The notes: generated by a model not told the origin, from the sequence alone. Counted from the stretch's first letter, positions 27,633 through 53,156 are shown. The stretch is DNA of 64,000 bases from Candidatus Poribacteria bacterium (GCA_965205015.1 OZ242029.1:992001-1056000), one strand, 5' to 3'. Made by a program: numbers and translations.

Positions 27633-28313
27633 TTAATAGGTGTTGTTATCCCAAAAGACCTTGAAGGTTCGAAGGAGTATTTTAAAATCGTTCCAGAAAG
27701 ATAGATTCTCAATGTACTCCAAATCAACAGGGATGCCATCTCGGATCGCTCCTTGTCGACGTGGACTTAGCTGCCAAAGACCTGTCATCCCTGGACGGAC
27801 GAGGTGGCGTTGATTTTCCCAGGGTTCATAATGTTCGGCAAGAAAAGGCATTTCTGGACGCGGACCCACCAGACTCATCTCACCTTTTAGCACATTGAAA
27901 AGTTGGGGCAACTCATCCAAACTCGTTTTACGGAGCCATTTGCCGATCAGTGTAATGCGCTTGTCATCAATCGCACCAGGTTTCTCGGAATAGGACGGCG
28001 TATCCGCATGGAGACTCCGAAACTTGTGGATAACAAAGAGTTCGTTGTTTAAACCGACCCGCTTGTGTGAGAAAAAGACAGCACCGCGTGAAGTGAGCTT
28101 AATGAGCATGGCAATCAACGCCATTAGAGGGGCAAAGATGATGATAAGAAAAAATGCGGCAATAGCATCAAACAAATGTTTGCCACGCGTTGCGTAGAAA
28201 GAGGAGAGTCGTTCCACAAGAGTCCCTGTTTTTGATATTTTTGGCGAAGCTTGCAAGCCAGTTCCGCTTGCATCTTTTCCTATCTGGTCTATGATTCTTG
28301 ATAGGAATGGCAT
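27633..28313 (-). CDS. Initiating sugar (phosphoglycosyl) transferase, PglC/WcaJ C-terminal type
   Basis: KFRS, LRKTSLDELPQLFNVLKGEMSLVGPRP, PGMTGLWQ. Confidence 0.93.
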   Translation of the reverse strand: MPFLSRIIDQIGKDASGTGLQASPKISKTGTLVERLSSFYATRGKHLFDAIAAFFLIIIFAPLMALIAMLIKLTSRGAVFFSHKRVGLNNELFVIHKFRSLHADTPSYSEKPGAIDDKRITLIGKWLRKTSLDELPQLFNVLKGEMSLVGPRPEMPFLAEHYEPWENQRHLVRPGMTGLWQLSPRRQGAIRDGIPVDLEYIENLSFWNDFKILLRTFKVFWDNNTY

Positions 28314-28315
28314 GG

Positions 28316-29434
28316 TTAAGTCCTCTGGAGCTTTTCAAAAACATCAAGATATTGCTGTGCTATGTTTTCCCAATTAAATCGTTTTCGGATCTGTTCCGGT
28401 GCGCGCTGCCGGAAATCCTCAACCTGTTCGGGATTTTGTTCCAACATCTGAATTTTTTCTGTAAGCGACGCGAGGTTTTTATCAAAAAGCACTCCATAAC
28501 GCCCACCTTCCAGCACTTCATCGTTGAAGGGCGTATTCAGTGCGAGAATGCAGTTGGAAAACCCTAACGCCTTTAGAATAGAAGGATTAATGCCACCGAA
28601 CTGGTGTCCATGGACGTAGGCAAAGCAGTGATGGTGCAGTTCTTTAATATGCTCGGAACTGTCAATATGTCCAAGAAACCTGACGTTCTCGTTCGCAATG
28701 CTTTTTAACTTCGAGAGAAATTCGTTTTCGAGTTTGTTGCCTTTGTAATCAGCGCCCCCGGCTATCGCGAGTTGTTTTCGGCTCTTTGAAGCAACGAACG
28801 CCTCTAAAATGAGGTCGGCATTGTTATCTGGAACGAGTCGACTGGCAATAAGATAATAATTCCGGGGTTCAAGTCCATAGGTCTCGAGAATTTCTGGATG
28901 TTCCGACGGCTCAATATTCGCGCCATAAGCGATATAGGTAGTTTCTGCGCCTAATTCCTCAAGATAGAGGCGCTTCATTTCAGAGGCATCCGTAATAACA
29001 ATTGGAAACGCTGCTGTCGCCATCTTTGCCGCCCACTTGAAGTAAAGGGCACCAAGCCCTTTCCATTTTGGACGGAGCCATTCCATTCCATCAACGTTGA
29101 TAACAGCGGTTTTGCCCGCGATACGGAAGAACCATCCGAACGGACCATTGCCGGCGTTCCATGTCAAAATGACATCAGATGCGGCAACCGAAGCGTGTAG
29201 CGTTGCGAGAAAACTGTGGCTCAGGGTACTGAACATCTTATGCTCTATGCTTGGCAAATAAACGAGCTTGATGCCCCTCCATTCCGCAGGTCTCTCCTGG
29301 AAAAGTGCCTTCCGGCAGTAGACGATAACTTCATGACCGGCTTCTACCCAGCGGGGGGCAAGTTCACCCATGATAGTCTCAAGTCCACTGTAGGTAGCGG
29401 GGAGCCCGCGTATTCCCAACACCCGAATCCTCAT
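28316..29434 (-). CDS. GT4-type glycosyltransferase (DUF1972/WchF-like)
   Basis: GIRGLPATYSGLET, NVDGMEW, SRLVPDNN, HGHQFGGINPS. Confidence 0.85.
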   Translation of the reverse strand: MRIRVLGIRGLPATYSGLETIMGELAPRWVEAGHEVIVYCRKALFQERPAEWRGIKLVYLPSIEHKMFSTLSHSFLATLHASVAASDVILTWNAGNGPFGWFFRIAGKTAVINVDGMEWLRPKWKGLGALYFKWAAKMATAAFPIVITDASEMKRLYLEELGAETTYIAYGANIEPSEHPEILETYGLEPRNYYLIASRLVPDNNADLILEAFVASKSRKQLAIAGGADYKGNKLENEFLSKLKSIANENVRFLGHIDSSEHIKELHHHCFAYVHGHQFGGINPSILKALGFSNCILALNTPFNDEVLEGGRYGVLFDKNLASLTEKIQMLEQNPEQVEDFRQRAPEQIRKRFNWENIAQQYLDVFEKLQRT

Positions 29435-29564
29435 TTTTCTACTTTTCCTTATATATTATACCCATCTTAGGCGTAAAAGTCCAATTTGTTTTTACGATCG
29501 GGAACCCATCGGCAATGCTTCGTATCCTTTGATGATTGGAACGGTACAAATCTTCATTTTTTTC

Positions 29565-31358
29565 CTACGGAAACCGGTAGAGGAATTTGGCTTCAATTTC
29601 ATTCGCATTTTCGCGGACCTCCGGACGATTTCCCAAGTTCCGTCTCCACACGCGCGCCCACTCTGCATAGAGTGAATAATGTCCAATAACAACCCAATTA
29701 GCCCCGACTGAAAGACGATGCTCACTCTCTGTGACACCAGATAACGGGGTCCAAACGTCGTCTCTTGGGGCATCAGCGGGATGCTCCTTGTCAATATTAC
29801 CGGACCCGTGGCGTTCCAATTCGTAACCGAAAGTCGTTTCAAGTCTATCCGTCCACCGGCGACGTAGTTCTATCCATAGATTATCAGCATCAGAACCGAT
29901 CTGATGCCCAATGGGTGTGGTGAAGTGTTTGTAAACATTCACAGGGTTTACGTGCGTATATGCGTATTGGTTTATAAAGGCGTATTCAGCATGAAAGTCG
30001 GTATCTGCGATGCCAAAAGGGTCTGTTAGATAGATACCGCCGAGGATACCAAATTTCGTATCCCAATGCTTAAAATTCGCTGCCGGGTTCCCATCATCCA
30101 CCATCAGTTCGCCATAAATTTCAAAATCGTCCACAAGGCGAAGCCGCATATCAACACTCATAAGGACATTGTCCCCACTGCCGGGGACGCGCCCATCTGC
30201 CCGTGAAATCGGTTGCTCGTTAATCAGGTAAATATTGACTGGGTTCAGATACCCGGGTTCAAAACGATCGCCGTAGACGACGACTTCAGAGAGGCCAAAA
30301 CCGAACCTATTCCAGAAGTATCCCTCAACCCTATGTCCTGAAATATACTTATCATTGATGTCCTCCGCCATATCCTCCAATACACCCGTGAATGCAGTGA
30401 AGGTGACGGGTTCGTAAGTGGCTTGGAACTTAATCATGTCCATGGCGAGTGGATTTTTGGAGACTAAAAGGCTGTCATGATAGCCAGGTCCCCACTGAAG
30501 TGTATCCTGTCCAAGCTGCAGCTCAAACCACGGCAAGTCAAACTTCAGATAGGCGTTAATAGCAGTCCGATTCTTGAGTCCACCCTCCAATTGCCTAATT
30601 TTCGTTTCATCAGGAAAGAAATCATCAAAAAATTCACCGTAGACAAACCTATGTGCGATATCAGTCGTAAAGGCGAACGTTTCTCCCACCTGTCCATAGA
30701 GATGTGGATAGAAGGTGGTAACATGCATGTTTCCTTCAGTGGGCTGTTCCTCCGACAGATTATCAACAAGATGAGCGATAACACGTTGCGAGGCTCTCAA
30801 GTCGAAAGAGAAACGATAGTTTTTACCCGTCATTGTCATGAGGTGCAATCGTCGGTTTTCGGACGGGCTATGTTTTTTCGTATCAGGGTCAGAACCCCCT
30901 CCTACATCGTTTTCTATAACCTGTTTCGGATGAATAAACCCCTCCCATGCTTCGCGGTAAAAGGTCAATAGCGTATTTAGCCGGTCTTGATCAATGGCAC
31001 TCAATGCGATTTCGCCGTTTTTCTGTTTCCGATCCACCTCTAACAGATAAGACACAACCTGTTTACGAGTGAGCGGTAATGAACCGCGCCGTATGCCGGG
31101 CAAAACCCGCTTATTAAGTAAACGATGCACAAAGCGATAGGTTTCACGATTAAAGTCTGACAAGTCCGGATTGAGCGGAACATTGATGAGCGAGGCAGCC
31201 CATGTCGTTGAGGCAGCTAAGACTAACACTGAAATACAGAGAATTAGCAGCTTTCTAACGATGGACCTTCTCGCATCATTTCCGTTCGTTTCATGATGGT
31301 GTCTGATCACGTCGCAACTGGCTTTGGAATTTGTACGTTTTTTTTCAAGAATCTTCAT
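29565..31358 (-). CDS. Capsule assembly Wzi family outer-membrane protein
   Basis: GQDTLQWGPG...LLVS, SGHRVE, YGELMVDD, GHQIGSDAD, terminal YRF; true start may be near 31283. Confidence 0.7.
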   Translation of the reverse strand: MKILEKKRTNSKASCDVIRHHHETNGNDARRSIVRKLLILCISVLVLAASTTWAASLINVPLNPDLSDFNRETYRFVHRLLNKRVLPGIRRGSLPLTRKQVVSYLLEVDRKQKNGEIALSAIDQDRLNTLLTFYREAWEGFIHPKQVIENDVGGGSDPDTKKHSPSENRRLHLMTMTGKNYRFSFDLRASQRVIAHLVDNLSEEQPTEGNMHVTTFYPHLYGQVGETFAFTTDIAHRFVYGEFFDDFFPDETKIRQLEGGLKNRTAINAYLKFDLPWFELQLGQDTLQWGPGYHDSLLVSKNPLAMDMIKFQATYEPVTFTAFTGVLEDMAEDINDKYISGHRVEGYFWNRFGFGLSEVVVYGDRFEPGYLNPVNIYLINEQPISRADGRVPGSGDNVLMSVDMRLRLVDDFEIYGELMVDDGNPAANFKHWDTKFGILGGIYLTDPFGIADTDFHAEYAFINQYAYTHVNPVNVYKHFTTPIGHQIGSDADNLWIELRRRWTDRLETTFGYELERHGSGNIDKEHPADAPRDDVWTPLSGVTESEHRLSVGANWVVIGHYSLYAEWARVWRRNLGNRPEVRENANEIEAKFLYRFP

Positions 31359-33382
31359 TTTAAAATCACCATTTGGCGTGTGGCTTTAATGTGTCCTGCC
31401 TGAAGCGTATAAAAGTAAACGCCACTTGCCACAGGTTCACCGACAGCATTCCGACCATCCCAATACGCCGCACGCGATCGCGTCCGATAAGTGCCAGCAC
31501 TTTGAAATCCGAGCGATAACCGACGGACAGATTCACCTTCTACGTTATAGATGTGAATCTCAACATCCGAACCTTCCGCCAAATCGTACGGGATCCACGT
31601 CTCAGGATTAAATGGATTCGGATAATTTACCAGAAGCACTGTTTCCTTGGGTATTGCCGTATTTATGAGACGCTCTAAGGCAGCAATGCCCTGTTGAAAA
31701 GCAAGGGAACCGTCATTCGCGCCCCGCGCTTCAGTCAGCCACTGTTCCACTAAGTCAAAATGCTCCGTTAAGGTTTCGGGGTTCCAAACCTCTCCCACAA
31801 GCGATGGGGCAGCAGGCGTACTGGATTCACCGAAATGCCCAGCAACCAGAATCAAGTCAAGAATGTTAACTTTACCATCCTTGTTCACGTCAACTTTCGG
31901 GTGTGCCGGCGTTTCCTCACCAATACTGCTTGAAATTAGGACGAGATCCCGGATATCAACGACCCCATCGTTATTTATATCCCAAGGTAATGTACGCGGA
32001 ACAGAAACTCGCTGATTCGCCTCCGGCAAAGCCGCTTGCCATCCGGCGTGCAGTCGCTCGCTGAGATGTGAGACGAGCTCAGCGTTTTCGGGAAGATCCA
32101 CGATATTAACGGTTTCATCCGGGTCGGCATCGTAGTCGTAAAGTTCTCGTCCTCTTTTTCCATCACGTCCCCACTCAGTGTATCGATACTGCATCGTCCG
32201 CATGGACCAGCCGCTTCCACCACGCTGGCTGAAAGCAGCAGTTTTCCATGGACGTGTCGGTTGCTCGATGACAGGCATCAGACTTAAACCCTCTAACGCT
32301 GAAGGCACGAGCAGCCCACACGCTTCACATAACGTTGGATAGATATCAACCAACTCAGCAAGCGCATCGGTTCGACTCGGTTGTTGCCCTGGAACACTGA
32401 TGATCATCGGAGAACGGAGCCCAACTTCAAAAAGCGTATTCTTACGCCAAGTCCCATGCTCCCCGAGATGAAAACCGTGATCGCCACAGAAAACGACAAC
32501 CGTATCTTTAGTTAGCCCAAGTGAGTCGAGTTGATTTAGGACGCGTCCGACTTGCGCATCCATATAACTTGTGGACGCGGCGTACGCCCGAATTAATTCT
32601 AAAGTTTTCTCTTCAGAAATCGGGACATCACCGGAAGGGATATCTGAATAGAGCCTAAATAGATTTATACTGTTACGTGCCACAACCGGAGAATTTTTGG
32701 GATAGTCAGAAGTAACCGGCAAGTCAAAGGTTTGTGTATTGTATAAATCGTAATACTTGCGCGGTGCGTGGAAGGGCAAGTGTGGCTTATCAAAACCAAC
32801 AGCTAAAAAAAATCGCTGGTTTTTAATATCCGCCAAAATTCCCTCTGTCTCCTTCGCAGTCTGACCATCGGTGAATGCATCGTCTGGAACGTCAAGCGCT
32901 TTCCACGATGGGCCCGGAATGAAAGCCTCCCAAGCATGATCTACCTTACCAACAGAGTGTGTAGTGTAACCGTTCTCATTAAAATATTGGCGCAAGCCCA
33001 CGACATCAGGTAATATCTCCCGAAAATCCCCAGCGTTACCCAAAATACCCGTCGTCTGGGGCCGCAAGCCAGTCAGTAGAGACGTTCGAGAAGGGTTACA
33101 GAGTGGCACTTGGCAATAAGCACGATTGAAGAGAATCCCTCGCTCCGCGAGCCGGTCAATGTTAGGTGTATGTATTTCTGGATGACCATAACATCCAAGC
33201 AAAGGACGCAGGTCATCAACAATGATGAATAACACATTGTATTGTCCCTGTGCATTCACACGGCGTTTCGGTAAAAGTCCCGTCGTAAAGGCAGCCGCCC
33301 CCGCTTTCAAACCTGTTGAGAGGAAGTTCCGCCGCGTAAATCGTCCGGAGAACGCGTGCTTCTGCTTCACATCTTTTATCAT
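31355..33382 (-). CDS. Tat-exported sulfatase (iduronate-2-sulfatase-like) with dockerin-like and FlgD-Ig/T9SS-like C-terminal domains, copy 4
   Basis: RRNFL; DDLR; CNPSRTSLLTG; KPHLP; GDHGFHLGEH; WDINNDGVVDIRDL; NYPNPFNPETWIPY. Confidence 0.9.
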   Translation of the reverse strand: MIKDVKQKHAFSGRFTRRNFLSTGLKAGAAAFTTGLLPKRRVNAQGQYNVLFIIVDDLRPLLGCYGHPEIHTPNIDRLAERGILFNRAYCQVPLCNPSRTSLLTGLRPQTTGILGNAGDFREILPDVVGLRQYFNENGYTTHSVGKVDHAWEAFIPGPSWKALDVPDDAFTDGQTAKETEGILADIKNQRFFLAVGFDKPHLPFHAPRKYYDLYNTQTFDLPVTSDYPKNSPVVARNSINLFRLYSDIPSGDVPISEEKTLELIRAYAASTSYMDAQVGRVLNQLDSLGLTKDTVVVFCGDHGFHLGEHGTWRKNTLFEVGLRSPMIISVPGQQPSRTDALAELVDIYPTLCEACGLLVPSALEGLSLMPVIEQPTRPWKTAAFSQRGGSGWSMRTMQYRYTEWGRDGKRGRELYDYDADPDETVNIVDLPENAELVSHLSERLHAGWQAALPEANQRVSVPRTLPWDINNDGVVDIRDLVLISSSIGEETPAHPKVDVNKDGKVNILDLILVAGHFGESSTPAAPSLVGEVWNPETLTEHFDLVEQWLTEARGANDGSLAFQQGIAALERLINTAIPKETVLLVNYPNPFNPETWIPYDLAEGSDVEIHIYNVEGESVRRLSLGFQSAGTYRTRSRAAYWDGRNAVGEPVASGVYFYTLQAGHIKATRQMVILK

Positions 33383-33391
33383 CTGATCTCC

Positions 33392-35443
33392 TTATTTTAC
33401 AATTACCATACGTCGCGTAGCATTCACCCCTCCTGCGCGAAGTGTGTATAAATAGACACCACTCGCAACGGGTTCTCCAACAGCATTCCGACCATCCCAA
33501 TACGCCGCACGCGATCGAGTCCGATAGGTCCCAGCACCTTGAAATCCGAGTGATAACCGACGAATAGATTCACCTTCTACATTATAGATGTCAATCTCAA
33601 CATCCGAATCTTCCGCCAAATCGTACGGAATCCACGTCTCAGGATTAAATGGATTCGGATAGTTCGCCAGAAGCACCGTTTCCGTGGGGATTGCCGTATT
33701 TATGAGATGTTCTAAGGCAGCAATGCCCTGCTGAAAAGCAAAAGAACCATCATTCGCAAGATGTGCTTCAGTGAGCCACTGTTCCACTAAGTCAAAATGC
33801 TCCGTACTCATAGTGGGGCGCGTCGACGGAGTAGCAGGAACGCTGGATTCACCGAAATGCCCAGCAACCAGAATCAAGTCAAGAATGTTAACTTTACCAT
33901 CCTTATTCACGTCAACTTTCGGGTGTGCCGGCGTTTCCTCACCAATACTGCTTGAAATTAGGACGAGATCCCGGATATCAACGACCCCATCGTTATTTAT
34001 ATCCCAAGGTAACGCTTGTGAGATAGGTATTTGTTGGTGCCCGTCCGGCAAAGCCGCCTTCCACCCAGCGCGAAGCTGCGCGCTGAGATGTGCGACGAAT
34101 TCTGCGTTTTCTGGTAGGTTCGCGATATTGACCGTCTCACCTGGATCCGTTTGATGATCGTAAAGTTCTTTACCGAGCCATGCATTTTCTCCCCATTCGG
34201 TATATCTGTATTGCTCCGTTCGCATCGAGCGTTTTCCATTCTTCTTTCCAACTTCGCTGAAGGCAGCGGACTTCCATGAAGTCGTCGGATTTTTTATAAC
34301 CGGAACCATACTAATCCCTTCTACCTGTGAAGGCGTAGGAAGTTGACATGCATCACATAACGTCGGAAAAATATCAACAAGTTCTACTAATGCATCCGTT
34401 TTGGCACCAAGATGTTTCTGACCTGGAATACTCACAATCAGGGGTGACCTAAGTGCAACTTCATACACGGTTCTCTTCCCCCACGTTTCATGCTCTCCCA
34501 GATGGAACCCGTGGTCGCCACAGAAAGCAATAACTGTATTTTCAGTTAGCCCAAGCAAGTCGAGTTGATTTAGGACGCGTCCGACTTGAGCATCTACATA
34601 ACTTGTGGACGCGGCATACGCCCGAATTAATTCTAAAGTTTTCTCTTCAGAGAGTGGAACATTTCCGGGGGGTATATCTGAATATGCTTTTATTTCATGT
34701 TTAGCGTGCGGAATTACGTGTGGAACGTCATTGGTAATTGGGGAATCATACAATTCATAATATTTTGTTGGAGCGTTGAAAGGCATATGTGGTTTGTAAA
34801 ATCCGAGCGTCAGAAAAAATGGCTGCTCCTTAACCGCCTCTAAAACTTTGATTGCATGATTCGCAATTTCTCCATCCTCCAGCTGATCGTCGGCAACATC
34901 AAACGCTTGCCAAGATGGACGCCCCTCATAAGGCCGCCACTTCGGCCACCAAATCGGAACGCTCCAAGAAAGTCTATCATTGCGTGCCTTAAGTCCATGG
35001 TCAACTTTACCGATTGAGCGGGTATGGTAACCGTGGGCTTTGAAATGCTGTGGTAACGTCACAGCATCAGGTACAGTCTGTCGAAAATCCGCGTAATTAT
35101 CCCGGACCCCGCTTGTCGTCGGACGCAACCCCGTCAGCATAGATGCCCGAGAAGGATTACAAACCGGAAATTGGCAATAAGCACGGTTGAAAAGCGTGCT
35201 GCGCTCAGCAAGCCGGTCAATATGGGGGGTATGCATCTCAGGATGTCCATAACATCCTAAAAGGGGACGCAGGTCATCTATAATGATAAATAACACATTG
35301 TATTGTCCCTGCGCATTCACACGGCGTTTCGGTAAAAGTCCCGTCGTAAAGGCAGCCGCCCCCGCTTTTAAACCTGTTGAGAGGAAGTTTCGACGCGTAA
35401 ATCGTCCGGAGAACGCGTGCTTCTGCTTCACATCTTTTATCAT
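33392..35443 (-). CDS. Tat-exported sulfatase with dockerin-like and FlgD-Ig tail, copy 3
   Basis: RRNFL; CNPSRASMLTG; same domain order. Confidence 0.9.
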   Translation of the reverse strand: MIKDVKQKHAFSGRFTRRNFLSTGLKAGAAAFTTGLLPKRRVNAQGQYNVLFIIIDDLRPLLGCYGHPEMHTPHIDRLAERSTLFNRAYCQFPVCNPSRASMLTGLRPTTSGVRDNYADFRQTVPDAVTLPQHFKAHGYHTRSIGKVDHGLKARNDRLSWSVPIWWPKWRPYEGRPSWQAFDVADDQLEDGEIANHAIKVLEAVKEQPFFLTLGFYKPHMPFNAPTKYYELYDSPITNDVPHVIPHAKHEIKAYSDIPPGNVPLSEEKTLELIRAYAASTSYVDAQVGRVLNQLDLLGLTENTVIAFCGDHGFHLGEHETWGKRTVYEVALRSPLIVSIPGQKHLGAKTDALVELVDIFPTLCDACQLPTPSQVEGISMVPVIKNPTTSWKSAAFSEVGKKNGKRSMRTEQYRYTEWGENAWLGKELYDHQTDPGETVNIANLPENAEFVAHLSAQLRAGWKAALPDGHQQIPISQALPWDINNDGVVDIRDLVLISSSIGEETPAHPKVDVNKDGKVNILDLILVAGHFGESSVPATPSTRPTMSTEHFDLVEQWLTEAHLANDGSFAFQQGIAALEHLINTAIPTETVLLANYPNPFNPETWIPYDLAEDSDVEIDIYNVEGESIRRLSLGFQGAGTYRTRSRAAYWDGRNAVGEPVASGVYLYTLRAGGVNATRRMVIVK

Positions 35444-35452
35444 CTGATCTCC

Positions 35453-37537: not shown

Positions 37538-37546
37538 TTGTTCCCC

Positions 37547-42120: not shown

Positions 42121-42136
42121 GGCTGACGGCTATAGA

Positions 42137-45210: not shown

Positions 45211-46124
45211 GAAGAAAGATCTCTGCCTAATAACTCAGCCAATTGCTCGTTAAATGGCTTAAAATACGCCCTCTGGCGTTCGCGTGTTTTCGGGTCCAGC
45301 GGAGGTGGCGTTGAATCTGTATCGCTCTTCGGAGACCTGTCGTTCCAATCCAGAACGGCTTTTCTCAACTTGTAAGCGGTGGCATCCGGCAGAAATTTCC
45401 GAATGACTCTTCTCAGCGGATTGTGAGATGCCAGAAATTGTGTAAAGAGAAAGTTGAATTTTTCATAACGTGGCAGCGTGGCTTGGTTATGCCGTTCACC
45501 TATCGTCGGACTGAAATCGGCAGAGACCCCCATACGATCAAAGAGTTGCTGACAGACCGCCTCAGCGTTATCCTTTAAATCATCCGTTAAGACGCACTGC
45601 ACGTGATTGGTGCCAAATTGGGTTATCAAATTCTTGACATGCGGATAATAGATGCCGTTGTATTGATAAGCACATTGTCGCCATTTAAACCAGTCTTCGT
45701 TCAGGCGGGCTTCCTCGGCAACAAGTGCCTCCTCATAAGTTTTGATGTTCTCCCAACCTCTCCGTCGAGCCCACCAATAGGCAGAATAAGCACGCGCTAC
45801 AGGTTCCCGTAGGAGAACAACAAGGTGTATCTGCGGATTGTGTTCATAAATCCGTTGCATGACTTCCGGTGAATGCATCACCATTACATTCTTAGCGATA
45901 AGAGACTTATCCTCAATTTCGCTGCGGGTATTCTCTCCAATAAAGTACTTCGCAAAAGCCCACTCATATCCGCGCGTGTATTCACGCCCCTGCAGGAAGA
46001 ACGTCATTTCCGGTTGTGCATGCGTGTGGATATCCGGATGCTGTGCCAAGTAGCGGAGAAGCGAAGAGGTTCCCGCTTTCTGTGCGCCAACAATCATCAA
46101 CTGGATTTTCCGCAAGTTTTCCAT
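45198..46124 (-). CDS. Sulfotransferase (heparan-sulfate-sulfotransferase-like motifs)
   Basis: IVGAQKAGTSSL..YLAQHP, LLREPVARAYSAY. Confidence 0.88.
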   Translation of the reverse strand: MENLRKIQLMIVGAQKAGTSSLLRYLAQHPDIHTHAQPEMTFFLQGREYTRGYEWAFAKYFIGENTRSEIEDKSLIAKNVMVMHSPEVMQRIYEHNPQIHLVVLLREPVARAYSAYWWARRRGWENIKTYEEALVAEEARLNEDWFKWRQCAYQYNGIYYPHVKNLITQFGTNHVQCVLTDDLKDNAEAVCQQLFDRMGVSADFSPTIGERHNQATLPRYEKFNFLFTQFLASHNPLRRVIRKFLPDATAYKLRKAVLDWNDRSPKSDTDSTPPPLDPKTRERQRAYFKPFNEQLAELLGRDLSSWNL

Positions 46125-47062
46125 GGTATGGGTTTCCCAATCAATTCGCCGAGTGCTCGAACATCCGACGCGTAATAATCAATTAAACGGTGCTTCGTTT
46201 CTTCTGACATCTGAGGCCTCTCATCCGCCCGTGTGTTCAACCGGAGATAGAGCGGCTCAATGGTGCGTTTGATTGCCCGCAACGGCATATGAATAACCGG
46301 CTTGTTATGCGTCCACTGGCGCAATTGAAACCGGAAGTCTCTATACTTTCGATGCAACTCAGAATTTCGCATCTGCTGGGTACGATTCGTTACTTTGAAG
46401 GCATAATCGGTAAAAAAACCGGCATCAATACCAGCGAAATCGCACAACTTTGCCAGAGTATCCGCCGGTTGTGCTGCAAGTTCCTCATAAAAGAGGATAT
46501 GGACACGCTCCGTACCGACTCGGTGAAAATAAGGCTCCAAATAGTTAGTATAACATCCTTGCTGGAGTGTTTGCAAGTGCTGCGCTTCTGTCTTTTCATG
46601 GCGATTCGTAGCAGCGAAAAGCAATTCAACATACGCGTCAAAACTCACAGTCTGTGGTAATTTGCCAATTTGCCTCGCAAACCGATACCAAGAGATTAAC
46701 CTGGAAATCGGCTCACGGAGACTGAACGCTAACTTTGCCTCCGGTAGCGATGTAGCGATTCTCTCACGGGCTTTCTCACAATACAGATAGTCGGGGGTCG
46801 ATTCCATCCGAAGCTGCGTTTCATCAGCATCAGGGAATAAAAGGTTGTACTCTTCGACATTCCCCGCCTGTTGATCTTCTCCATATCGATATTTTGAGGG
46901 AAGCGGATAGTCGCTGCTGAGAAAAAACCGAGTCTCCTTGTAGGTGGCAGCGCAAATAGCGGGATGATCCGCCAAGTAGGTGAACAAAGACGTTGTCGCC
47001 GCCTTTGTAGTGCCCCCTATGATGAGATAATGGTAATCCGCAACGTTTTTCGTTAAGGTCAT
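46097..47062 (-). CDS. Sulfotransferase (heparan-sulfate-sulfotransferase-like motifs)
   Basis: IIGGTTKAATTSL..YLADHP, KETRFF, ESTPDY, LREPISRLISWY. Confidence 0.88.
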   Translation of the reverse strand: MTLTKNVADYHYLIIGGTTKAATTSLFTYLADHPAICAATYKETRFFLSSDYPLPSKYRYGEDQQAGNVEEYNLLFPDADETQLRMESTPDYLYCEKARERIATSLPEAKLAFSLREPISRLISWYRFARQIGKLPQTVSFDAYVELLFAATNRHEKTEAQHLQTLQQGCYTNYLEPYFHRVGTERVHILFYEELAAQPADTLAKLCDFAGIDAGFFTDYAFKVTNRTQQMRNSELHRKYRDFRFQLRQWTHNKPVIHMPLRAIKRTIEPLYLRLNTRADERPQMSEETKHRLIDYYASDVRALGELIGKPIPWKTCGKSS

Positions 47063-47088
47063 TTTTCTTCTTTCCACCTAACACACGA

Positions 47089-47327
47089 CATGTAGGGGCA
47101 GGTCTTGTACCTGCCCAAACCAGAAACCACCACATCAGCATGTAGGGACAGGTCTTGTACCTGCCCAAACCAGAAACCACCACATCAGCATGTAGGGGCA
47201 GGTCTTGTACCTGCCCAAACCAGAAACCACCACATCAGCATGTAGGGACAGGTCTTGTACCTGCCCAAACCAGAAACCACCACATCAGCATGTAGGGGCA
47301 GGTCTTGTACCTGCCCAAACCAGAAAC
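47089..47327. repeat. Tandem array of ~5 copies of a 50-bp unit containing a GTAG-type REP palindrome
   Basis: tgtaggg(g/a)caggtcttgtacctgcccaaaccagaaaccaccacatcagca at 47091, 47141, 47191, 47241, 47291. Confidence 0.95.
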
Positions 47328-47333
47328 TGCTAA

Positions 47334-48707
47334 TTAGAACCAAGACACCCGCGTCCTTCGCAGGAGATACGTCAGGTTCCCAACAGATAGAAGGGCAGTA
47401 ATTGCTACAGATAACGCGACAGACAAAAGCCACCAGGTTTCGATTAACCCGTACGCCAACAGAAAATTGAGAATTGCCATTGTCACCATATTTGTGAAAA
47501 TAGCGCGGTATGCCCTTTGCGCGTAAAGTCCGGCATTCAGCACAGGTATCAGACAAGAAAATATCATTCCCGTGCTGAGCCAAAAGAGGAGTTGCCCTAT
47601 CAATTCAATTGACGTCTGATCGATTGTCCCTCTCCCATACAAGAGTGAACTGATCCTTCCGTGAAATATCAGCAAGACCAAGGTTACCGGAAATCCGATA
47701 ATTATAGCCGCACGTGCGTTTCGGTTGAGGCTACGCCCTAATTCCGCTTTATCGCCTGTCGCGTCGTGCTCGGTGGTCCCGTGATCACGATCATCGTGAT
47801 TTGACCCGAAACTCGTGCTTTGCTGCCTTGTATTGGCGTTGAGTTTCGGATTAAGTGCTACGGCTGTCGCCATCTCGGGTAAGCCAGTTGTTGCGATACT
47901 GATACCGATGAGTGTCTGCAGCGCTGAAAAGATTTGGAAGGCAGACTTATAGAGTGTGATAGCCCCACTTCCAAGTTGTGAAACAAGGTACACCTCAACC
48001 AGCAAGCGGTTTACGATTTGTCGTATCCCGAAGCCGAGCGTCGGAAGAGCAACCGTGTTTTTCAAAGAACGCAGCGTGTCCACAGAAACGCCCGTGAATT
48101 CATATCGATGTCCTATTCGATATGCTCCGATGCCCAACCACCCAAAGTAAGCAATAAAGCCGCCAGTGTATGCCATCGCCACCCAGTTTTCAAGGCGCTG
48201 TGTATTCCATAGGAGCAAAAATATAAACGCTGCAGTGCCAGCAGGTAAGGCGTTTCGGAGTGCCACCGTCTTGAAATGTCGCTGGCTATTCAGGAAAGCC
48301 CCCAGTACCGTGCTACCACATCCGAAGATAAGGAGAGGGGCGCAAAATCGCAACAGTGTGGTAACTCTCTGGACATCAACAGTTGATTTCCATAACAACC
48401 CACCTGCTATCCACGGCGCGAGCAGCTCAATCAGAATGAAAACTCCGAAGCCAATACTGAGCAACAAAATTAGGAGGCTATTCGTGAAACGTTGGTATTC
48501 GGTGCGTGTCATCTCCTTCCCGTTTGCGACAAAGACCGGAACGAGACTAAATTTGGCACCTTCCCGGACAACCGTATCTACTAACAGCACGACTGTTAAC
48601 GCCACAATGAGCGCATCGGCGGTATCGCTGAATCCGAAGCGTTTTGGAATCAATAGGACCCGGACGAGCAGACTCAACCCCATTCCAGCAAGGGTAATCA
48701 GCATCAC
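47334..48707 (-). CDS. MurJ/MviN-like (MOP superfamily) flippase
   Basis: FG.S..ADA, GAFLNS..HF, SIATTGLP, LLYGRG, ~12 TM helices. Confidence 0.75.
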   Translation of the reverse strand: MMLITLAGMGLSLLVRVLLIPKRFGFSDTADALIVALTVVLLVDTVVREGAKFSLVPVFVANGKEMTRTEYQRFTNSLLILLLSIGFGVFILIELLAPWIAGGLLWKSTVDVQRVTTLLRFCAPLLIFGCGSTVLGAFLNSQRHFKTVALRNALPAGTAAFIFLLLWNTQRLENWVAMAYTGGFIAYFGWLGIGAYRIGHRYEFTGVSVDTLRSLKNTVALPTLGFGIRQIVNRLLVEVYLVSQLGSGAITLYKSAFQIFSALQTLIGISIATTGLPEMATAVALNPKLNANTRQQSTSFGSNHDDRDHGTTEHDATGDKAELGRSLNRNARAAIIIGFPVTLVLLIFHGRISSLLYGRGTIDQTSIELIGQLLFWLSTGMIFSCLIPVLNAGLYAQRAYRAIFTNMVTMAILNFLLAYGLIETWWLLSVALSVAITALLSVGNLTYLLRRTRVSWF

Positions 48708-48904: not shown

Positions 48905-49903
48905 TTAAGAATTCCAGGTTTCGGGTAGATTTTTGCGAATCTCAATGTCTGTAAACAGTGTGGAAGCCCGCGGTCCAACGGACTGTGCCCATGTTGCCAT
49001 TCTCTGTAAGCCCTCTGGAAGCGAGACTTCGGATGTCGTCCCAAAGACCTTTTGAAACTTCTCGTGTGTGCAATAGGCATGTTTCACCTCTTCTCTTGCA
49101 CGCACGTTGATAACAGAGACTTCCTTTCCCATCGCTGTCATCACCAAGTCTGCCAATTCGTTGACGGATACATGCTCGTCCGATCCGACGTTGAACACCT
49201 CTCCGGCTGCTTCGGGTATGTCAACGGCATGCGCGATGTGTGGAGCAACATCCGCAATATGCGTGAAGGCGCGCGTCTGCTCACCGTCCCCAAAGATAAC
49301 TAACGGTTCCCCCTGCATAATATTATTCATGAAAATGCCGATGACGTTTCGATACTTGTCCCCGATATTCTGGAGTTCACCGTAGACGTTGTGGGGACGG
49401 AAAATGGTATACTCCAAACCGAAAAGCCGCTTTGCGACAGCGAGTTCCTGTTCAACGGCATATTTAGCGATGCCGTAAGAATCCTCGGGCATAGGCGTGA
49501 GTGCCTCATGCATCGGAAGTTGGTTCGCACCGTAGACAGCGATGGAAGAGGTGAACACAAACCGCTTGACGTCGTGGTTCACCGCTGCATTGATGAGGTT
49601 TACACTGCCAATGAGGTTGTTCTGGTAGTTAAATCGTTTAATAAAGTGACTGAGCCCTTCCGCTGCATACGCGGCGAGATGATAGATATAGTCGAATTGG
49701 TATTGCTCACAGAGTTTATTTATGAGTTGCGCGTCAAGGATGCTTCCTTCAACAAAGGTTACGGCAGGATTGAGATTCTCACGGAAGCCGCCACTGAGGT
49801 CATCAAGTGCAACAACGTCTGTGTTACCTTGTTCGAGCAGTTCATTAACGACGTGCGCGCCCATAAAGCCCGCGCCACCTGTGACTAATGCTTTATTTTT
49901 CAT
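48905..49903 (-). CDS. NAD-dependent epimerase/dehydratase (UDP-sugar 4-epimerase-like)
   Basis: TGGAGFMG, HLAA, SSIAVYG, YGIAK. Confidence 0.92.
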   Translation of the reverse strand: MKNKALVTGGAGFMGAHVVNELLEQGNTDVVALDDLSGGFRENLNPAVTFVEGSILDAQLINKLCEQYQFDYIYHLAAYAAEGLSHFIKRFNYQNNLIGSVNLINAAVNHDVKRFVFTSSIAVYGANQLPMHEALTPMPEDSYGIAKYAVEQELAVAKRLFGLEYTIFRPHNVYGELQNIGDKYRNVIGIFMNNIMQGEPLVIFGDGEQTRAFTHIADVAPHIAHAVDIPEAAGEVFNVGSDEHVSVNELADLVMTAMGKEVSVINVRAREEVKHAYCTHEKFQKVFGTTSEVSLPEGLQRMATWAQSVGPRASTLFTDIEIRKNLPETWNS

Positions 49904-50044
49904 GTTTGGTTGGCACTATTCCTTATTATTTTAGTACTACGAGCCGTCTTGCCTGTTTGTACGTCGGCGTTTCTAACTCACAAATATAAACTCCATTCGC
50001 TACGTGCTCCCCTAATTCGTTCATAATGGGTAGCCATTAAAATG

Positions 50045-51247
50045 CTACAAAAATTGTTGGTAGACCTTCATAATTTTTTCATAGTGAACCTCGGCGTTAA
50101 ACTCTGTCTCCACCTTTTGGCGACCCATGCGCCCCATCTCAACAGCTTCGCTTTTATGCTCGAACATCCACAACAACCGTTCTTGTAGCGCGTCTTTTCC
50201 ACCCGCTGGAAAGAGAAATCCATCAACGCCATCTTCAATGATTTCGGGAATCCCACCGATATCAGCACCGATCGCTGGCTTGCCGTAGGCGTAAGATTCT
50301 AAAATAGACATCGGGCAGTTTTCGTACAGCTCGGAGGGCAAGACCATACAAATGCTATTCTGAATCAATTCTCGGAGCGCATCGCCCTGTTTAAAACCGA
50401 GCAGATGAATATGCTCACATTCATTTTCTTCAAGCATACGTTGGATTTCAGGCACCGCCTCACCATCCCCGACAATATAAAGCGGTACGTGTTTGAGTGG
50501 CATCGCTGCTTCTATCAACGTAAAAATTCCTTTAGCCCGATACAACCGCCCGAAATAGAGAAGATAGTCCCCGGTTTTGAAACTCGGCGTGATGTCGGAG
50601 ACATCAACAAAGTTGTGTACAGTTGATATTTTATGTTCAGGAATACCGTACGAGATCATTTTTTTTCGGTTGAAGTGACATACCGAGATGAAATGGTCAA
50701 ATTTGTTATGTGAACCCAGTATCCGAGAGAAATAAGATTCGGTAACGCTTAACGTAGTACGAGCGAGCGAGCCCTTATTGCACCGTTTCGGGAGTGCCCG
50801 CCAAAAGTGCTTACCAGCACAGGCTTCACAAATTTCATCGTTTGAGATATGACTATGAACTGGACACGTCAACTTAAAATCGTGTAACGTCTGAATGAGT
50901 GGGATCCCTGCTTTTTTGAACTCGTTCAAGATTGAGGCGGTCAGCTTACCGTAGTAGATGTGAAAATGTGCGAGGTCAATTTTTGTGTCCTTTAGTAACC
51001 GCCGAATTGCGTTAACAGCATCGTATGAATAGAGAAAGCGCAACAAGTCGCCTACCGCCGGCTGCTCAAAATTTGCGCCGCGCGGGAAATAGCGTTCCCA
51101 TTCAGACGACTCATTTTCAGGATTTGCTGCCGTAAACGGGATGACTCGGTGTCCATGCTTTCTTAACAACTCAGCGAGGACAAAAAAATAGCGATCAGAA
51201 CCGCCGCGGACATAATGATTTTGTGAGACATTCAGAATAGTGTGCAT
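50045..51247 (-). CDS. GT4 glycosyltransferase
   Basis: GGSDRY, TLHD, FGRL..AKG, YENCPMSILE. Confidence 0.9.
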   Translation of the reverse strand: MHTILNVSQNHYVRGGSDRYFFVLAELLRKHGHRVIPFTAANPENESSEWERYFPRGANFEQPAVGDLLRFLYSYDAVNAIRRLLKDTKIDLAHFHIYYGKLTASILNEFKKAGIPLIQTLHDFKLTCPVHSHISNDEICEACAGKHFWRALPKRCNKGSLARTTLSVTESYFSRILGSHNKFDHFISVCHFNRKKMISYGIPEHKISTVHNFVDVSDITPSFKTGDYLLYFGRLYRAKGIFTLIEAAMPLKHVPLYIVGDGEAVPEIQRMLEENECEHIHLLGFKQGDALRELIQNSICMVLPSELYENCPMSILESYAYGKPAIGADIGGIPEIIEDGVDGFLFPAGGKDALQERLLWMFEHKSEAVEMGRMGRQKVETEFNAEVHYEKIMKVYQQFL

Positions 51248-51292
51248 ATTCTGCTAAGGTTGGTGTTATTGTTTTGATTTCAGTTTTTCCAT

Positions 51293-52045
51293 TTAGGTTC
51301 TGACAAACTGAGAATACACATCTCGGACCGTTTTAAAGCCAGGGAGCATATAGTCCGGACGTGCTTGCAATTCGAGCGGTGGATGGTTTTCTCCCAAAAC
51401 AGCCGAAGCCGTCGTTTCTGTATAGAATCCGCCATGGGTTAACTTTGCCAATTCTTTCACTTCAACAGCCTGGCCCGTCCCAACATCATAGGTGCCGATA
51501 ATATTTAAATTTTCAACATAGCGAACGGCACGAACCACATCCTCTACGTGGATATAGTCTCGGCGAAAGGGATAGAATACATAGCGAAGCGTCCGCTGCA
51601 TGAGTTTTTCAGGTACAGAATGGTTTTCAGGTGGACGATTGTCCTCAGCCCCATACACATTGTAGAGTCTTAAAATACAATACTTTTCATTGTTTACGCG
51701 GATGTAGTCCTCAGCGACCCGCTTGGACCATCCATAGTAGGATTTTGGAGAGATCGCTGTGCAAGAGGAAATAAAAATAAGAAAGGCGTTTTCGTGACGC
51801 GCCAGATCAGCAATTTGCTTTGTCGCTTCATAATTCCATTTAAAGATGTCAGGATCTTGATAGAGTGAATTGGCTATTGCACCGCAATGAATAATGGTTG
51901 TCGCTTGTTCTATTGAATCGCGTATTTCGGCAAATAATGTCTCCCATCGCTGAAAACATTGATTTTCATCAAGGGTTTTTGCCGAAGGGTACGCTTGGTG
52001 CAAGTGCCCACCAATATAACCTCTGTTCCCTGTTAGGAAAACCAT
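51293..52045 (-). CDS. NAD-dependent epimerase/dehydratase (short)
   Basis: TGNRGYIG, YGWSK, LRLYNVYG, RDYIHVEDV. Confidence 0.85.
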   Translation of the reverse strand: MVFLTGNRGYIGGHLHQAYPSAKTLDENQCFQRWETLFAEIRDSIEQATTIIHCGAIANSLYQDPDIFKWNYEATKQIADLARHENAFLIFISSCTAISPKSYYGWSKRVAEDYIRVNNEKYCILRLYNVYGAEDNRPPENHSVPEKLMQRTLRYVFYPFRRDYIHVEDVVRAVRYVENLNIIGTYDVGTGQAVEVKELAKLTHGGFYTETTASAVLGENHPPLELQARPDYMLPGFKTVRDVYSQFVRT

Positions 52046-52274
52046 CTAAATCACCTCCCTACACAAAATAGGTATAATCTTTGCCTAAAACAGTGATGCG
52101 GGCGTGAAAACCTTCAGAAACTGTGGAAAAAACCCGCATGCAAGATGCCAATATTGTAACACACTGAACGAAAAATGTCAAATCTCAAATTACCTTGGAA
52201 TCCCCCTCAAGCCCACCAATATTCAGCAGATCAAGCCCTCTGCATTGCACCTATTTTAATCGCGGTAGGTAATC

Positions 52275-53156
52275 TTAAGTCAATAAAGCACTGACCCAAC
52301 TATTAAGCCGTTGCGGGATTGTTGTGAGCTGCGCGCGGAAAAGCGTCAAGTCAGCATCATCGGCAATCGGAACGGTTTTCAGCCGATAGGGGGCAGTCTT
52401 CTGCGTATTCCAACCTATATCCGTCGTACGCGCCGATCGGAACCCGGCTGTTTTCACGATCTCAATTTCGCGTTCGGTATAATCACCGTTCGGATAACTG
52501 AAATGGGAGCATTCAATCTCTAAAAGCTTCTCTAAATCCAGCTTGCTGCCAAGAATTTCTTGCCTACATTCCGTCTCTGTACAGTGTGTTAAAATCGGAT
52601 GGAACTGCGTATGCGGTTGAAAGTCAACGTCCGCTACCATCTTCTTCATTTCGGTGATATTCAGTGCCTGCCTGTCTGGATACCTCTTTTCTGGTTCAAA
52701 GTCAGTCGTATGCTTGAGGGACGCTAACCGCTCACCATTCGGCAGCCTTTTCAGTTTTTCTCTCTCCGCTTTGGACTGCCCTTCTATTTTGAACCAGAAA
52801 TGCCGATGCGTATCAACAATCTGTGTGCAAACAAAGAGTGTCGGACAAATACGGTACTGTGTGAAAAGGGGCAAGAGTTCGATATTACCGACGTGTCCAT
52901 CGTCGATGGTAATTACAACACTCTTTGCGGGTATCTGTGAGAAATCCTCCTGATAAATAGCAGCGACCAAGGTATCAAGTGAGATAACCGTATAATGGTG
53001 CGAGAGATAAGCAAGATGTTTAGCGAAAACAGCCGATTTCGCATCGTGATACATGAGGATAGCGACCCGGTTGCGGCAGAAGCACTCCCGAACGAGGATA
53101 TGTACGCCTAATAAACAGATGAGGGTTGCCACCATATTTTTAAGAAAATCACGCAT
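52275..53156 (-). CDS. Polysaccharide deacetylase (CE4/NodB, IcaB-like)
   Basis: ILMYH, ITIDDG, HTQFHP, FSYPNG. Confidence 0.88.
   Translation of the reverse strand: MRDFLKNMVATLICLLGVHILVRECFCRNRVAILMYHDAKSAVFAKHLAYLSHHYTVISLDTLVAAIYQEDFSQIPAKSVVITIDDGHVGNIELLPLFTQYRICPTLFVCTQIVDTHRHFWFKIEGQSKAEREKLKRLPNGERLASLKHTTDFEPEKRYPDRQALNITEMKKMVADVDFQPHTQFHPILTHCTETECRQEILGSKLDLEKLLEIECSHFSYPNGDYTEREIEIVKTAGFRSARTTDIGWNTQKTAPYRLKTVPIADDADLTLFRAQLTTIPQRLNSWVSALLT

Follow-up and report, generated by a model that had tools for sequence, protein, structure and literature searches.

A conserved locus of one Poribacteria family predicted to build a sulfated surface polysaccharide

Background

The animal heparan sulfate pathway comprises EXT, NDST, HS2/3/6ST, SULF and the GH79 heparanase, and the group 1 capsule system of Escherichia coli comprises Wzx, Wzy, Wza, Wzc and Wzi. 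Poribacteria are known as sponge symbionts. Sulfated polymers are also made by bacteria. The xss cluster of Synechocystis sp. PCC 6803, whose sulfated product synechan is known, encodes a Wzx/Wzy pathway with a priming transferase, eight glycosyltransferases, two sulfotransferases of two subfamilies and its own co-polymerase, with an export protein acting in trans; in the available text of that paper the word "sulfatase" is confined to the reference list (PMC8205485). The wps-1 cluster of the Gram-positive Actinoplanes missouriensis, whose product is putative, combines Wzx and Wzy with a GH26 glycoside hydrolase and two sulfotransferases, which represent two families and of which one has a heparan-sulfate-type domain, and the main text does not mention a sulfatase (PMC13390465). 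The marine Pontiella sulfatireligans F21 makes an N-sulfated glycosaminoglycan-like exopolymer and has many sulfatases; the putative cluster for its sulfated glycosaminoglycan has one sulfotransferase among eight glycosyltransferases, and the available parts of the source describe no linked sulfatase array (PMC7356697). An initial annotation of the locus described here took bacterial glycosaminoglycan capsules to be unsulfated, a premise that is too narrow in view of such sulfated Wzx/Wzy polymers (PMC8205485) and N-sulfated exopolymers (PMC7356697).

The poribacterial locus resembles xss by cluster description in its predicted Wzx/Wzy pathway, priming transferase, two sulfotransferase subfamilies, export in trans and predicted sulfated product, but has three transfer steps, four sulfotransferases, a Wzi, a hydrolase and an array of sulfatases. 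It shares with wps-1 the presence of Wzx-like, Wzy-like, hydrolase and two kinds of sulfotransferase genes in one cluster, and with P. sulfatireligans a marine setting and sulfotransferases among glycosyltransferases. Like the group 1 capsule system it holds Wzi, Wzx-like and Wzy-like proteins and a priming transferase, and Wza and Wzc are encoded in the genomes of relatives, but these are unlinked, the flippase is MurJ-like, and sulfation is predicted.

Gene content and conservation of the locus

The window, which is the whole 64,000-nucleotide stretch of a Candidatus Poribacteria genome that was analysed, contains the gene set claimed at 27633..53156: each of the 19 genes listed there is an uninterrupted open reading frame on the minus strand with correct coordinates, and the Pfam/NCBIfam or PDB matches agree. 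The 4-nt overlaps at 31355-31358 (sulfatase/Wzi) and 43813-43816 (Wzy/hydrolase) are real, as is a 4-nt overlap of ST2 with Wzy if the ATG at 45201 is taken as the Wzy start codon. The run, which had been taken to end at 53156, continues upstream on the same strand with a right-handed beta-helix lipoprotein (53181..54194; Pfam Beta_helix/NosD, with look-alikes elsewhere) at the head of the locus, then Hen1/Pnkp. Seven intergenic gaps of 130-256 nt break the run, and REP-like repeats fill two of them; repeat analysis gave a 50-nt REP-like tandem repeat of 4.8 copies (47089..47327) and an 18-nt tandem repeat of 7.8 copies within a REP-like element (41943..42082). Two minus-strand sigma-70-like sites, one matching 11/12 with an extended -10 between the CE4 deacetylase and the first epimerase (52153..52181) and one matching 10/12 before GT4 B (29455..29483), are consensus matches only, and such matches are no more frequent in the region than by chance (25 versus 25.6 expected; 15 versus 21.1 expected in a second scan).

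The marker sulfotransferase ST4 was found in 105/111 genomes of one Poribacteria family and in 0/64 other Poribacteria. Of 71 poribacterial loci, 68-71 have the core genes, and their arrangement is the same. The conserved core begins with an epimerase, the flippase and a pair of sulfotransferases, continues with Wzy, the hydrolase and a second sulfotransferase pair, and after a slot ends with Wzi, GT4 and the priming transferase. Related cassettes are not restricted to Poribacteria: cyanobacteria and further phyla carry them as well. The core glycosyltransferase GT4 A (50045..51247, minus strand like all genes below; assigned by family match) has relatives at 47-54% in the cassettes of other phyla and is present in 9/9 upstream regions examined, as is the beta-helix lipoprotein gene upstream of GT4. 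At the opposite end lie the Wzi-like outer-membrane capsule-assembly protein (29565..31358; PF14052), orthologues of which occur throughout the family and also in four Poribacteria outside it, GT4 B (28316..29434; DUF1972, Cps2T-like below cut-off), and the priming polyprenyl-phosphate sugar-1-phosphate transferase (27633..28313; PF02397), one of three per genome.

The core epimerase slot holds an NDP-sugar 4-epimerase-like enzyme (48905..49903; closest solved structure 4zrm, E 8e-51) found in 87/111 family genomes. Some genomes replace it with an FGGY-like kinase and a nucleotidyltransferase; the kinase occurs in 19/175 genomes, none of which has the core epimerase. The short NAD-dependent epimerase (51293..52045), ADP-heptose-epimerase-like by family matches, is accessory, with a close orthologue in 18/111 genomes (within 40 kb of the marker in 14). 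Between GT4 A and the core epimerase, 52/71 poribacterial loci carry an open reading frame with a C-terminal sorting tail, encoding an FG-GAP/ASPIC, LRR or other protein; judged from these relatives, the window retains here a remnant of the sorting tail of a lost exported-protein gene (49904..50044).

Sulfotransferases and sulfate supply

Family and solved-structure matches place ST1 (46097..47077) and ST2 (45198..46124) in the HS3ST/NST-like class, and ST3 (40895..41902) and ST4 (39691..40695) in the Sulfotransfer_3, TPST-like class. All four keep near-invariant PAPS motifs across 68-71 loci: the motif residues of ST1 are retained in 60-69 of 69, and the PAPS-loop Gly, Lys, Thr and Ser of ST2 in 68/68. 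The solved eukaryotic enzymes nearest to ST1 and ST2 are heparan-sulfate 3-O/N-sulfotransferases (HS3ST and NDST domains), and the best match of both overall is the bacterial protein 3rnl (for ST2, E 1e-30, with HS3ST1 at 3e-16). A signal peptide is absent from ST1 and ST2, and because the sulfotransferases are without signal peptides and PAPS is cytoplasmic, sulfation would take place in the cytoplasm, before flipping.

As first reported, the 50 window proteins scanned gave no match to Wza, Wzc or a PAPS-synthesis family. The sulfate-activation genes (cysDNC) had been expected elsewhere, and Sat and CysC are indeed encoded outside the locus in 5/5 complete genomes of relatives. As in synechan, PAPS-type sulfotransferases with intact motifs thus stand in the cluster, with PAPS supplied from outside it in relatives. 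The four conserved sulfotransferases, their PAPS motifs, the nearness of two of them to heparan-sulfate sulfotransferases among solved eukaryotic enzymes, and the PAPS synthesis and Wza/Wzc genes elsewhere in relatives support the proposal of a multiply sulfated surface polymer. On its gene content, the most likely product of the locus is a sugar polymer of the cell surface that is heavily sulfated.

Flippase, polymerase and export

A dedicated flippase gene, as in Wzx/Wzy loci, is present inside the locus (47334..48707; MurJ-like, PF03023), and a much stronger housekeeping MurJ is encoded elsewhere in 5/5 genomes; we infer that the MurJ-like protein plays the role of Wzx. The locus also has the priming transferase (PF02397) and glycosyltransferases (two GT4) of such systems, which may assemble a unit of roughly three sugars on a lipid carrier. 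GT4 B would probably add the second sugar, for which dTDP-rhamnose is an unlikely donor because RmlC is absent from 5/5 complete genomes. The four PAPS-dependent sulfotransferases would then sulfate the unit, the MurJ-like protein flip it, and Wzy polymerise it.

The Wzy-like protein (43813..45201; listed open reading frame 43813-45210) has at least seven hydrophobic segments and is encoded in 69/71 loci. It matches Wzy_C at 26.6 bits, less than the 31.7 that Pfam requires, and the family includes both polymerases and ligases. With no chain-length regulator (Wzz/Wzc) in the locus, the locus might make no capsule, with the Wzy_C protein acting as a ligase that joins a short sulfated glycan to surface proteins or lipid A-core; this glycan could serve as an anchor for the tail-bearing exported proteins, which border the core in the majority of loci. 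PorV-like genes, moreover, occur both in the window and close to one Wza. We regard this as unlikely, since Wzi and the conserved hydrolase suit a polymer, and since two other Wzy_C genes (in genome G001), which match the family more strongly than the locus gene and stand alone, the neighbours checked matching neither a glycosyltransferase nor a flippase, are available as ligases. A single Wzc is encoded outside the locus in 110/111 family genomes, and Wza in 5/5 genomes of relatives. In two genomes Wzc adjoins Wza and a UDP-HexNAc-type dehydrogenase, with neither Wzy nor Wzx in the 20 kb read; such a pair, lacking a polymerase beside it, calls for one elsewhere, which also speaks against the ligase reading. 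Judged from relatives, the polymerising system would thus obtain its co-polymerase and outer-membrane exporter in trans, the Wza/Wzc pair exporting the polymer and Wzi holding it at the surface.

Comparison with the heparan sulfate pathway

The hydrolase lipoprotein (42137..43816; lipobox) has the (beta/alpha)8 barrel and catalytic-type glutamates (E219 and E342, retained in 70 and 71 of 71 loci) of clan GH-A, and profile and fold place it in the GH51/GH79 neighbourhood. The window protein has no Pfam match, and relatives are precomputed as PF22848. GH51 ranks above GH79 in the profile search (E 1e-30 versus 2e-7) and in both fold comparisons (in one of them Z 34.8, rmsd 2.6, 418 residues aligned, versus Z 30.4, rmsd 3.4, 394 aligned), at 17-19% identity to GH51 in the structural alignment; comparison with a bacterial heparanase fold gave Z 29.3. 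GH79, the heparanase family, is thus not the closest by profile or fold. In the periplasm the hydrolase may clear or trim chains.

The CE4 deacetylase (52275..53156; PF01522) is accessory at its position. It occurs in 95/111 family genomes, at most 40 kb from the marker in 23, far from it on the same contig in 30, on another contig in 36 and without a marker match in 6; in G001 and G004 it belongs to a PMT_2-GT4-CE4-methyltransferase operon (PMT_2 being GT-C). No processive HexNAc/HexA disaccharide synthase is present in the locus, which has the two GT4 and the priming transferase and no GT2 synthase.

The locus resembles the animal pathway in its several sulfotransferases (two of HS3ST/NST type), extracellular sulfatases and clan-A hydrolase, but the repeat is predicted to be lipid-linked where animals use a processive disaccharide synthase, the deacetylase is unfused and not conserved in position, the sulfatases match the iduronate-2-sulfatase subfamily, and the hydrolase is nearer GH51. 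A true glycosaminoglycan mimic, with deacetylation, N- and O-sulfation and post-export editing by matched sulfatases and a heparanase-like enzyme, would accord with the eukaryotic relationships of ST1 and ST2, the heparanase fold score, iduronate 2-sulfatase as the second-best solved sulfatase match, the deacetylase near the locus in 23 genomes, and two nucleotide-sugar dehydrogenases per genome, one adjoining Wza/Wzc. Three transfer steps with both glycosyltransferases of family 4 give no glycosaminoglycan disaccharide, however, just 23 of 53 same-contig genomes have the deacetylase close to the locus and two genomes have it in a separate operon, and the best match of ST1 and ST2 is bacterial; since the cassette extends to cyanobacteria and other non-poribacterial phyla, it did not originate in this family for mimicry. 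The heparan-like route originally suggested is thus poorly borne out, and we consider a true mimic of this kind very unlikely. The polymer probably does not reproduce animal heparan sulfate; going by the enzymes encoded, its backbone would not be that of a classical glycosaminoglycan.

The sulfatase array

The four exported sulfatases are not four separate types but tandem paralogues of one subfamily, 59-71% identical: copy 1 (37547..39667; twin-arginine leader, dockerin-like domain and FlgD-Ig/Por-type tail), copy 2 (35453..37537), copy 3 (33392..35443; family match) and copy 4 (31355..33382; shortened loop after the GKxxH motif). The closest solved structure to copy 2 is 6hhm (E 1e-91), followed by iduronate 2-sulfatase (E 1.5e-61), and the S1_7 assignment is inferred from these two matches; the CxPxR motif, metal ligands, and catalytic His and Lys of S1_7 are present. 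All seven catalytic and metal residues are intact in 121/121 copies, and a twin-arginine motif is found in 117/117. In sequence, CxPxR motif and metal ligands the copies resemble Formosa agariphila P18_S1_7 (6HHM), Zobellia CgsB and human iduronate 2-sulfatase, from which their twin-arginine leader, dockerin-like and FlgD-Ig tail, and tandem arrangement inside a biosynthesis locus set them apart; 6HHM is an endo-acting polysaccharide 2-O-sulfatase, and the characterised S1_7 enzymes are catabolic (PMC9096561). The subfamily does not indicate the substrate, because S1_7 holds several specificities (xylose-2-sulfate, galactose-4-sulfate).

Sulfatase-like genes may also add sulfate: two in the N-glycosylation cluster of Halobacterium salinarum (Agl30/Agl31) are needed for glycan sulfation, and 6HHM is the nearest structure for one (PMC11980604). 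That the poribacterial copies are likewise extra writers, transferring sulfate outside the cytoplasm, is highly improbable, since the H. salinarum likeness to 6HHM is distant (rmsd 3.7) and the poribacterial match is close, with the full hydrolase motif set; moreover, four PAPS enzymes are already present and no donor is evident outside the cytoplasm.

Synteny only partly upheld the expectation that sulfatases stay inside orthologous loci: the slot holds a sulfatase in 47/58 closed loci and 128/150 among the matches listed are within 20 kb of the marker, but the slot lacks one in 11/58. In 4/5 genomes full-length copies are found at this locus and nowhere else, the fifth having none, and where the locus is broken after ST4 (G112, G094, G077) the sulfatases remain ahead of Wzi. 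Copy number varies from 0 to 4 or 5, in about ten subclades, and 23/111 family genomes have no match to this clade; with four constant writers, a fixed set of writers and erasers, as had been envisaged, is not what is found. The family copies group together to the exclusion of six S1_7 enzymes used as outgroup, and support for this clade is weak (0.67). No sulfatase was found beside the related cassettes in 9/9 non-poribacterial genomes (five on short or cut contigs), and in the four Poribacteria outside the family that have a Wzi orthologue none was found next to it. We suggest that the clade entered the slot in the ancestry of the family and later underwent expansion, recombination and loss.

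The main competing view, which we rate as a substantial possibility somewhat short of even, accepts that the core makes a sulfated polymer and regards the sulfatases as passengers in an exported-protein slot, whose substrates are glycans of the sponge matrix or sulfated polysaccharides in solution and which are unconnected with the coat of the cell itself. The phylum has been described as degrading host glycosaminoglycans (PMC6306507). The variable erasers beside fixed writers, the catabolic nature of characterised S1_7 enzymes (PMC9096561), substrate-side loops that differ in length between copies, a nearest relative within the own locus for only 5/104 copies, the use of the same slots by LRR, WD40 and FG-GAP proteins that bear this tail too, and a sulfatase sited away from the locus in G100 and G155 all favour it. 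Against it, the clade is far more confined to the locus than its roughly 40 scattered catabolic cousins (39-50 sulfatases per genome); copy 4 overlaps Wzi by 4 nt in the window; and one subclade in 10/11 kinase-type loci, one mosaic genome included, is a weak hint of tracking a polymer variant. Linkage to the locus may reflect a recombination-prone array rather than a shared substrate. On their sequences and distribution the sulfatases look like an accessory array for remodelling or for host glycans, not fixed erasers, and the chances are about even that they desulfate the cell's own polymer (turnover or remodelling) rather than host glycans.

Conclusions

The reading that we favour, and hold as a whole to be moderately probable, is of a Wzx/Wzy capsule with a repeat of about three sugars, sulfated in the cytoplasm as in synechan, to which a single Tat-exported S1_7-like clade with intact active sites would be a dedicated but dispensable add-on. 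Within that same joint estimate, the locus would be the main Wzx/Wzy surface-polysaccharide locus of one Poribacteria family.

Conservation and gene order

The locus, a minus-strand run at about 27633..53156, is real and conserved. Its sulfotransferase ST4 (39691..40695), used as the marker gene, is present in 105 of 175 Poribacteria genomes. All 105 belong to one family, represented by 111 genomes, and 0 of the 64 others have the gene; the best 120 relatives are 77-100% identical. The set of loci compared, the best 80 of 97 from the genome collection, comprised 71 of poribacterial type and 9 from other phyla. The genes for the MurJ-like flippase, ST1, ST2, Wzy, the hydrolase lipoprotein, ST3 and ST4 each occur in 68-71 of the 71 poribacterial loci, in unchanged order. 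Poribacteria are described in PMC6306507 as typical symbionts of high-microbial-abundance sponges. Parts of the cassette are also found in cyanobacteria, Gemmatimonadota, Salinibacter, Bacteroidota and others, and one Gemmatimonadota locus combines the epimerase, both GT4s, the flippase, Wzy and three sulfotransferases.

All genes named in the initial annotation are intact and correctly placed, and the gene overlaps that it claimed are real; its picture of a co-oriented run with tight junctions holds for these overlaps, but the run is not seamless, having seven gaps of 130-256 nt. REP-like repeats occupy two of the seven (47089-47327 and 41903-42136, with 50-nt and 18-nt tandem repeats); in locus L073, an IS200-like transposase gene lies at the position matching 47089-47327. 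Promoter-like sites precede the first epimerase and the last GT4, with total match counts at or below chance level. A remnant of an exported-protein gene (49904-50044) retains its last 30 codons alone; at this position, relatives encode complete FG-GAP/ASPIC or LRR proteins, as many as several in succession. Contigs of the single sponge metatranscriptome considered (0.06 word share) reach 29 of the 30 bins across 27000-46999, but just 26 of 533 are at least 99% alike; such contigs can reveal neither strand nor transcripts, and they carry no weight here.

At the head of the locus lies a co-oriented Hen1/Pnkp RNA-repair pair (54233-58261, minus strand); this linkage is old, since Pnkp occupies the same place in 8 of the 9 upstream regions inspected, one of which was cut. 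A DUF983 membrane protein (27219-27605, minus strand) follows the priming transferase, as it does in 36 loci whose flank extends there. Elsewhere in the window are an IS4-like transposase (4820-5965, minus strand) between two LamG-domain genes, and an ORF without family match (61419-62006, minus strand) with a 12-nt repeat encoding GLER units, which may be internally deleted, as the ORF in relatives begins similarly and runs to 315 aa. An Rfam scan gave 0 matches.

Sulfotransferases and sulfate supply

The top solved match of ST1 and ST2 is the bacterial sulfotransferase 3rnl, followed by heparan-sulfate 3-O- and N-sulfotransferase domains; ST3 and ST4 are closest, weakly, to tyrosylprotein sulfotransferases. 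Among the 68-71 sequences aligned, the PAPS-loop Lys/Arg and Thr/Ser are invariant or nearly so. The four enzymes are soluble, at 308-335 aa, and because none has a hydrophobic leader, sulfate is most likely added in the cytoplasm, to the lipid-linked unit. Each genome has five to seven Sulfotransfer_3 matches, four of them from the locus.

Genes acting in trans (PAPS supply, Wza and Wzc) were sought in the genomes of relatives. PAPS-synthesis genes, which the initial annotation had not seen in the window, are indeed located elsewhere: Sat and CysC were found in 5 of 5 near-complete relative genomes. In L002 (11083-11616) and 29 other loci, but not in the window, a 177-aa ORF separates ST4 from the sulfatases; it was considered as an APS kinase and rejected, being a lipoprotein with no Pfam match. 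PMC13390465 and PMC8205485 describe sulfated polysaccharides as rare among bacteria other than cyanobacteria, and the authors of PMC7356697 state that they know of no GAG-active sulfotransferase of bacterial origin.

Polymer assembly and sugar supply

A repeat of three sugars would follow from the one priming transferase and two GT4s, and unlinked enzymes may add more. The housekeeping MurJ is located away from the locus. A single Wzc is encoded in 110 of 111 family genomes; in G001 and G004, it lies beside Wza, near a UDP-HexNAc-type dehydrogenase, and no polymerase or flippase was recognised within 20 kb. No glycosyltransferase was found among the neighbours checked of the other two Wzy_C genes of G001.

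The likeness of the second GT4 (28316..29434) to Cps2T is below cut-off, and its assignment as a rhamnosyltransferase is doubted, as a search of five genomes recovered RmlC in none of them. The first epimerase, present in 18 of 111 genomes, was rejected as a core gene. The core epimerase slot has two exclusive states: 87 of 111 genomes have the epimerase, generically a 4-epimerase by its solved matches, and 19 have in its place a kinase, FGGY-like only, with an RfaE-II-like nucleotidyltransferase (L058:1048-2438 and 12 other loci), never both. The latter pair is a putative nucleotide-sugar or nucleotide-polyol route. One locus, L020 of genome G126, is a mosaic in which the kinase, flippase, ST1 and ST2 derive from the kinase clade and the remainder from the epimerase clade; it also carries a sulfatase subclade that otherwise occurs in kinase-type loci and in the window. 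Such a pattern resembles the exchange of modules between serotypes.

The hydrolase and the deacetylase

The initial annotation had proposed a glycosaminoglycan-like product and had set the locus beside animal heparan sulfate, which is edited by GH79 heparanase. The hydrolase has a clan-A barrel, two conserved glutamates and a lipobox. Its predicted model (pLDDT 93.9) ranks GH51 first in the fold comparison (Z 34.8, rmsd 2.6, 418 aligned), ahead of GH79 glucuronidase (Z 30.4), bacterial heparanase (29.3) and human proheparanase (27.3), and a profile search and a second fold comparison also placed GH51 before GH79. The heparanase parallel is thus not upheld; on its model, the hydrolase is an unassigned member of the GH51/GH79 neighbourhood. 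Polysaccharide-export loci commonly contain hydrolases, such as PslG, PelA and BcsZ. WpsE is another, according to PMC13390465.

The CE4 deacetylase (52275..53156) is present in 95 of 111 family genomes. Measured against ST4, 23 of these have it near the locus and 30 have it far off on that contig; in 36 it is on a different contig, and 6 have no marker match. In G001 and G004, it belongs to another operon, following ispG, with a PMT_2 membrane transferase, a GT4 and a methyltransferase (L148:4756-9748 and L149:6818-10999), a layout which we take to resemble ArnT-type lipid modification; the operon is a candidate lipid-linked aminosugar modification system. Being mostly away from the locus and in a different operon in these two genomes, CE4 is not a fixed sulfotransferase partner, and the proposal that it is a conserved NDST-like core partner was rejected. 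The locus probably lies outside the GAG pathways.

The sulfatase array

The four sulfatases of the window, in the slot between ST4 and Wzi, are paralogues, 59-71% identical. They were assigned to subfamily S1_7 because 6HHM and iduronate 2-sulfatase are their top solved matches; members of S1_7 act on ulvan xylose-2-sulfate and carrageenan galactose-4-sulfate, according to PMC9096561. Among the best 80 of 97 loci, the twin-arginine motif is present in 117 of 117 locus copies and the C-terminal FlgD-Ig/Por-type sorting tail in 107 of 117. The seven residues for catalysis and metal binding are all intact in each of the 121 domains of at least 380 aa (shorter fragments being left out), so the possibility that these are dead copies was rejected. 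As the export route of the tail is described as unknown in PMC3909097, the sulfatases may be in the periplasm or on the surface. Por structural genes have been reported missing from the phylum; PorV/PorQ-like genes below family cut-off lie at 7362-8225 (plus strand) and L096:3908-5158.

Of the 111 family genomes, 88 carry the sulfatase clade; among the 64 other Poribacteria, relatives just 39-53% identical occur in 7 genomes, and the tail was absent in the six fetched. The expectation that sulfatases stay inside orthologous loci was borne out in part: among the 150 matches listed of 201, ST4 is no more than 20 kb away for 128 and far off on the contig for 2; a further 16 are on a contig other than that of ST4 and 4 in genomes lacking ST4. 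Of the closed slots, 11 hold no copy. Closed slots with 1, 2, 3 and 4 copies number 15, 16, 10 and 6, and 13 slots are cut or broken, one holding 5 copies. In six fetched cases not adjoining ST4, four sulfatases are directly before Wzi and two elsewhere.

The copies fall into about ten old subclades. Recent species-specific duplication was rejected, as just 5 of 104 copies find their nearest relative within their own locus. Repeated independent insertion is not favoured, the copies being one clade (with support of just 0.67); the tree favours a single ancestral entry followed by gain and loss. In the window, homogenisation has affected the leaders (97% across columns 1-150 in copies 3 and 4) and the tails (91-95% in copies 2-4), and the central stretches are mostly 49-78% alike. 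LRR, WD40 and FG-GAP proteins that share the sulfatases' tail occupy the same slots. The sulfatases are a birth-and-death array, locus-tied yet dispensable.

No sulfatase was found beside the related cassettes outside Poribacteria in 9 of 9 loci, five on short or cut contigs. In two other Poribacteria (L128 of G035 and L130 of G049), different Wzx/Wzy loci end at an orthologous Wzi and contain two sulfotransferases each and several methyltransferases, with no adjoining S1_7 gene. On this comparison, sulfated coats seem older in the Poribacteria group than the sulfatase array.

Comparison with synechan and significance

By analogy, the locus would work like the synechan-type sulfated Wzx/Wzy polymer system of Synechocystis sp. 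PCC 6803, although its sulfotransferases are twice as many, its predicted repeat is much shorter, and it adds a linked sulfatase array. Literature searches found no published work on the poribacterial locus (Poribacteria genome literature may still mention its genes), none on Poribacteria joining sulfotransferase and sulfatase, none about the locus among papers on Poribacteria and sulfotransferase, judged by title and abstract start, and none on a sulfatase within a capsule biosynthesis locus. A sulfatase array linked to a Wzx/Wzy sulfated-polymer locus is thus without a published match in the literature searched.

Four sulfotransferases for three transfer steps are kept across the whole symbiont family. 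As soluble proteins, they should be expressible and assayable, so that the origin of heavily sulfated polymers in bacteria becomes testable and glycan engineering gains new tools. It is plausible that the sulfatases edit the cell's own coat; if coat-acting, the linked array would be a first example of a bacterial coat being desulfated after export. It is a bolder and rather unlikely proposal that a short-repeat coat, sulfated at up to four positions to heparin-like density and tuned outside by swappable surface sulfatases, constitutes a sulfation code, complete with writers, erasers and module swaps of the serotype kind, that manages recognition by the sponge host. A sulfatase-edited coat would bear on how dense sponge microbiomes escape being eaten.
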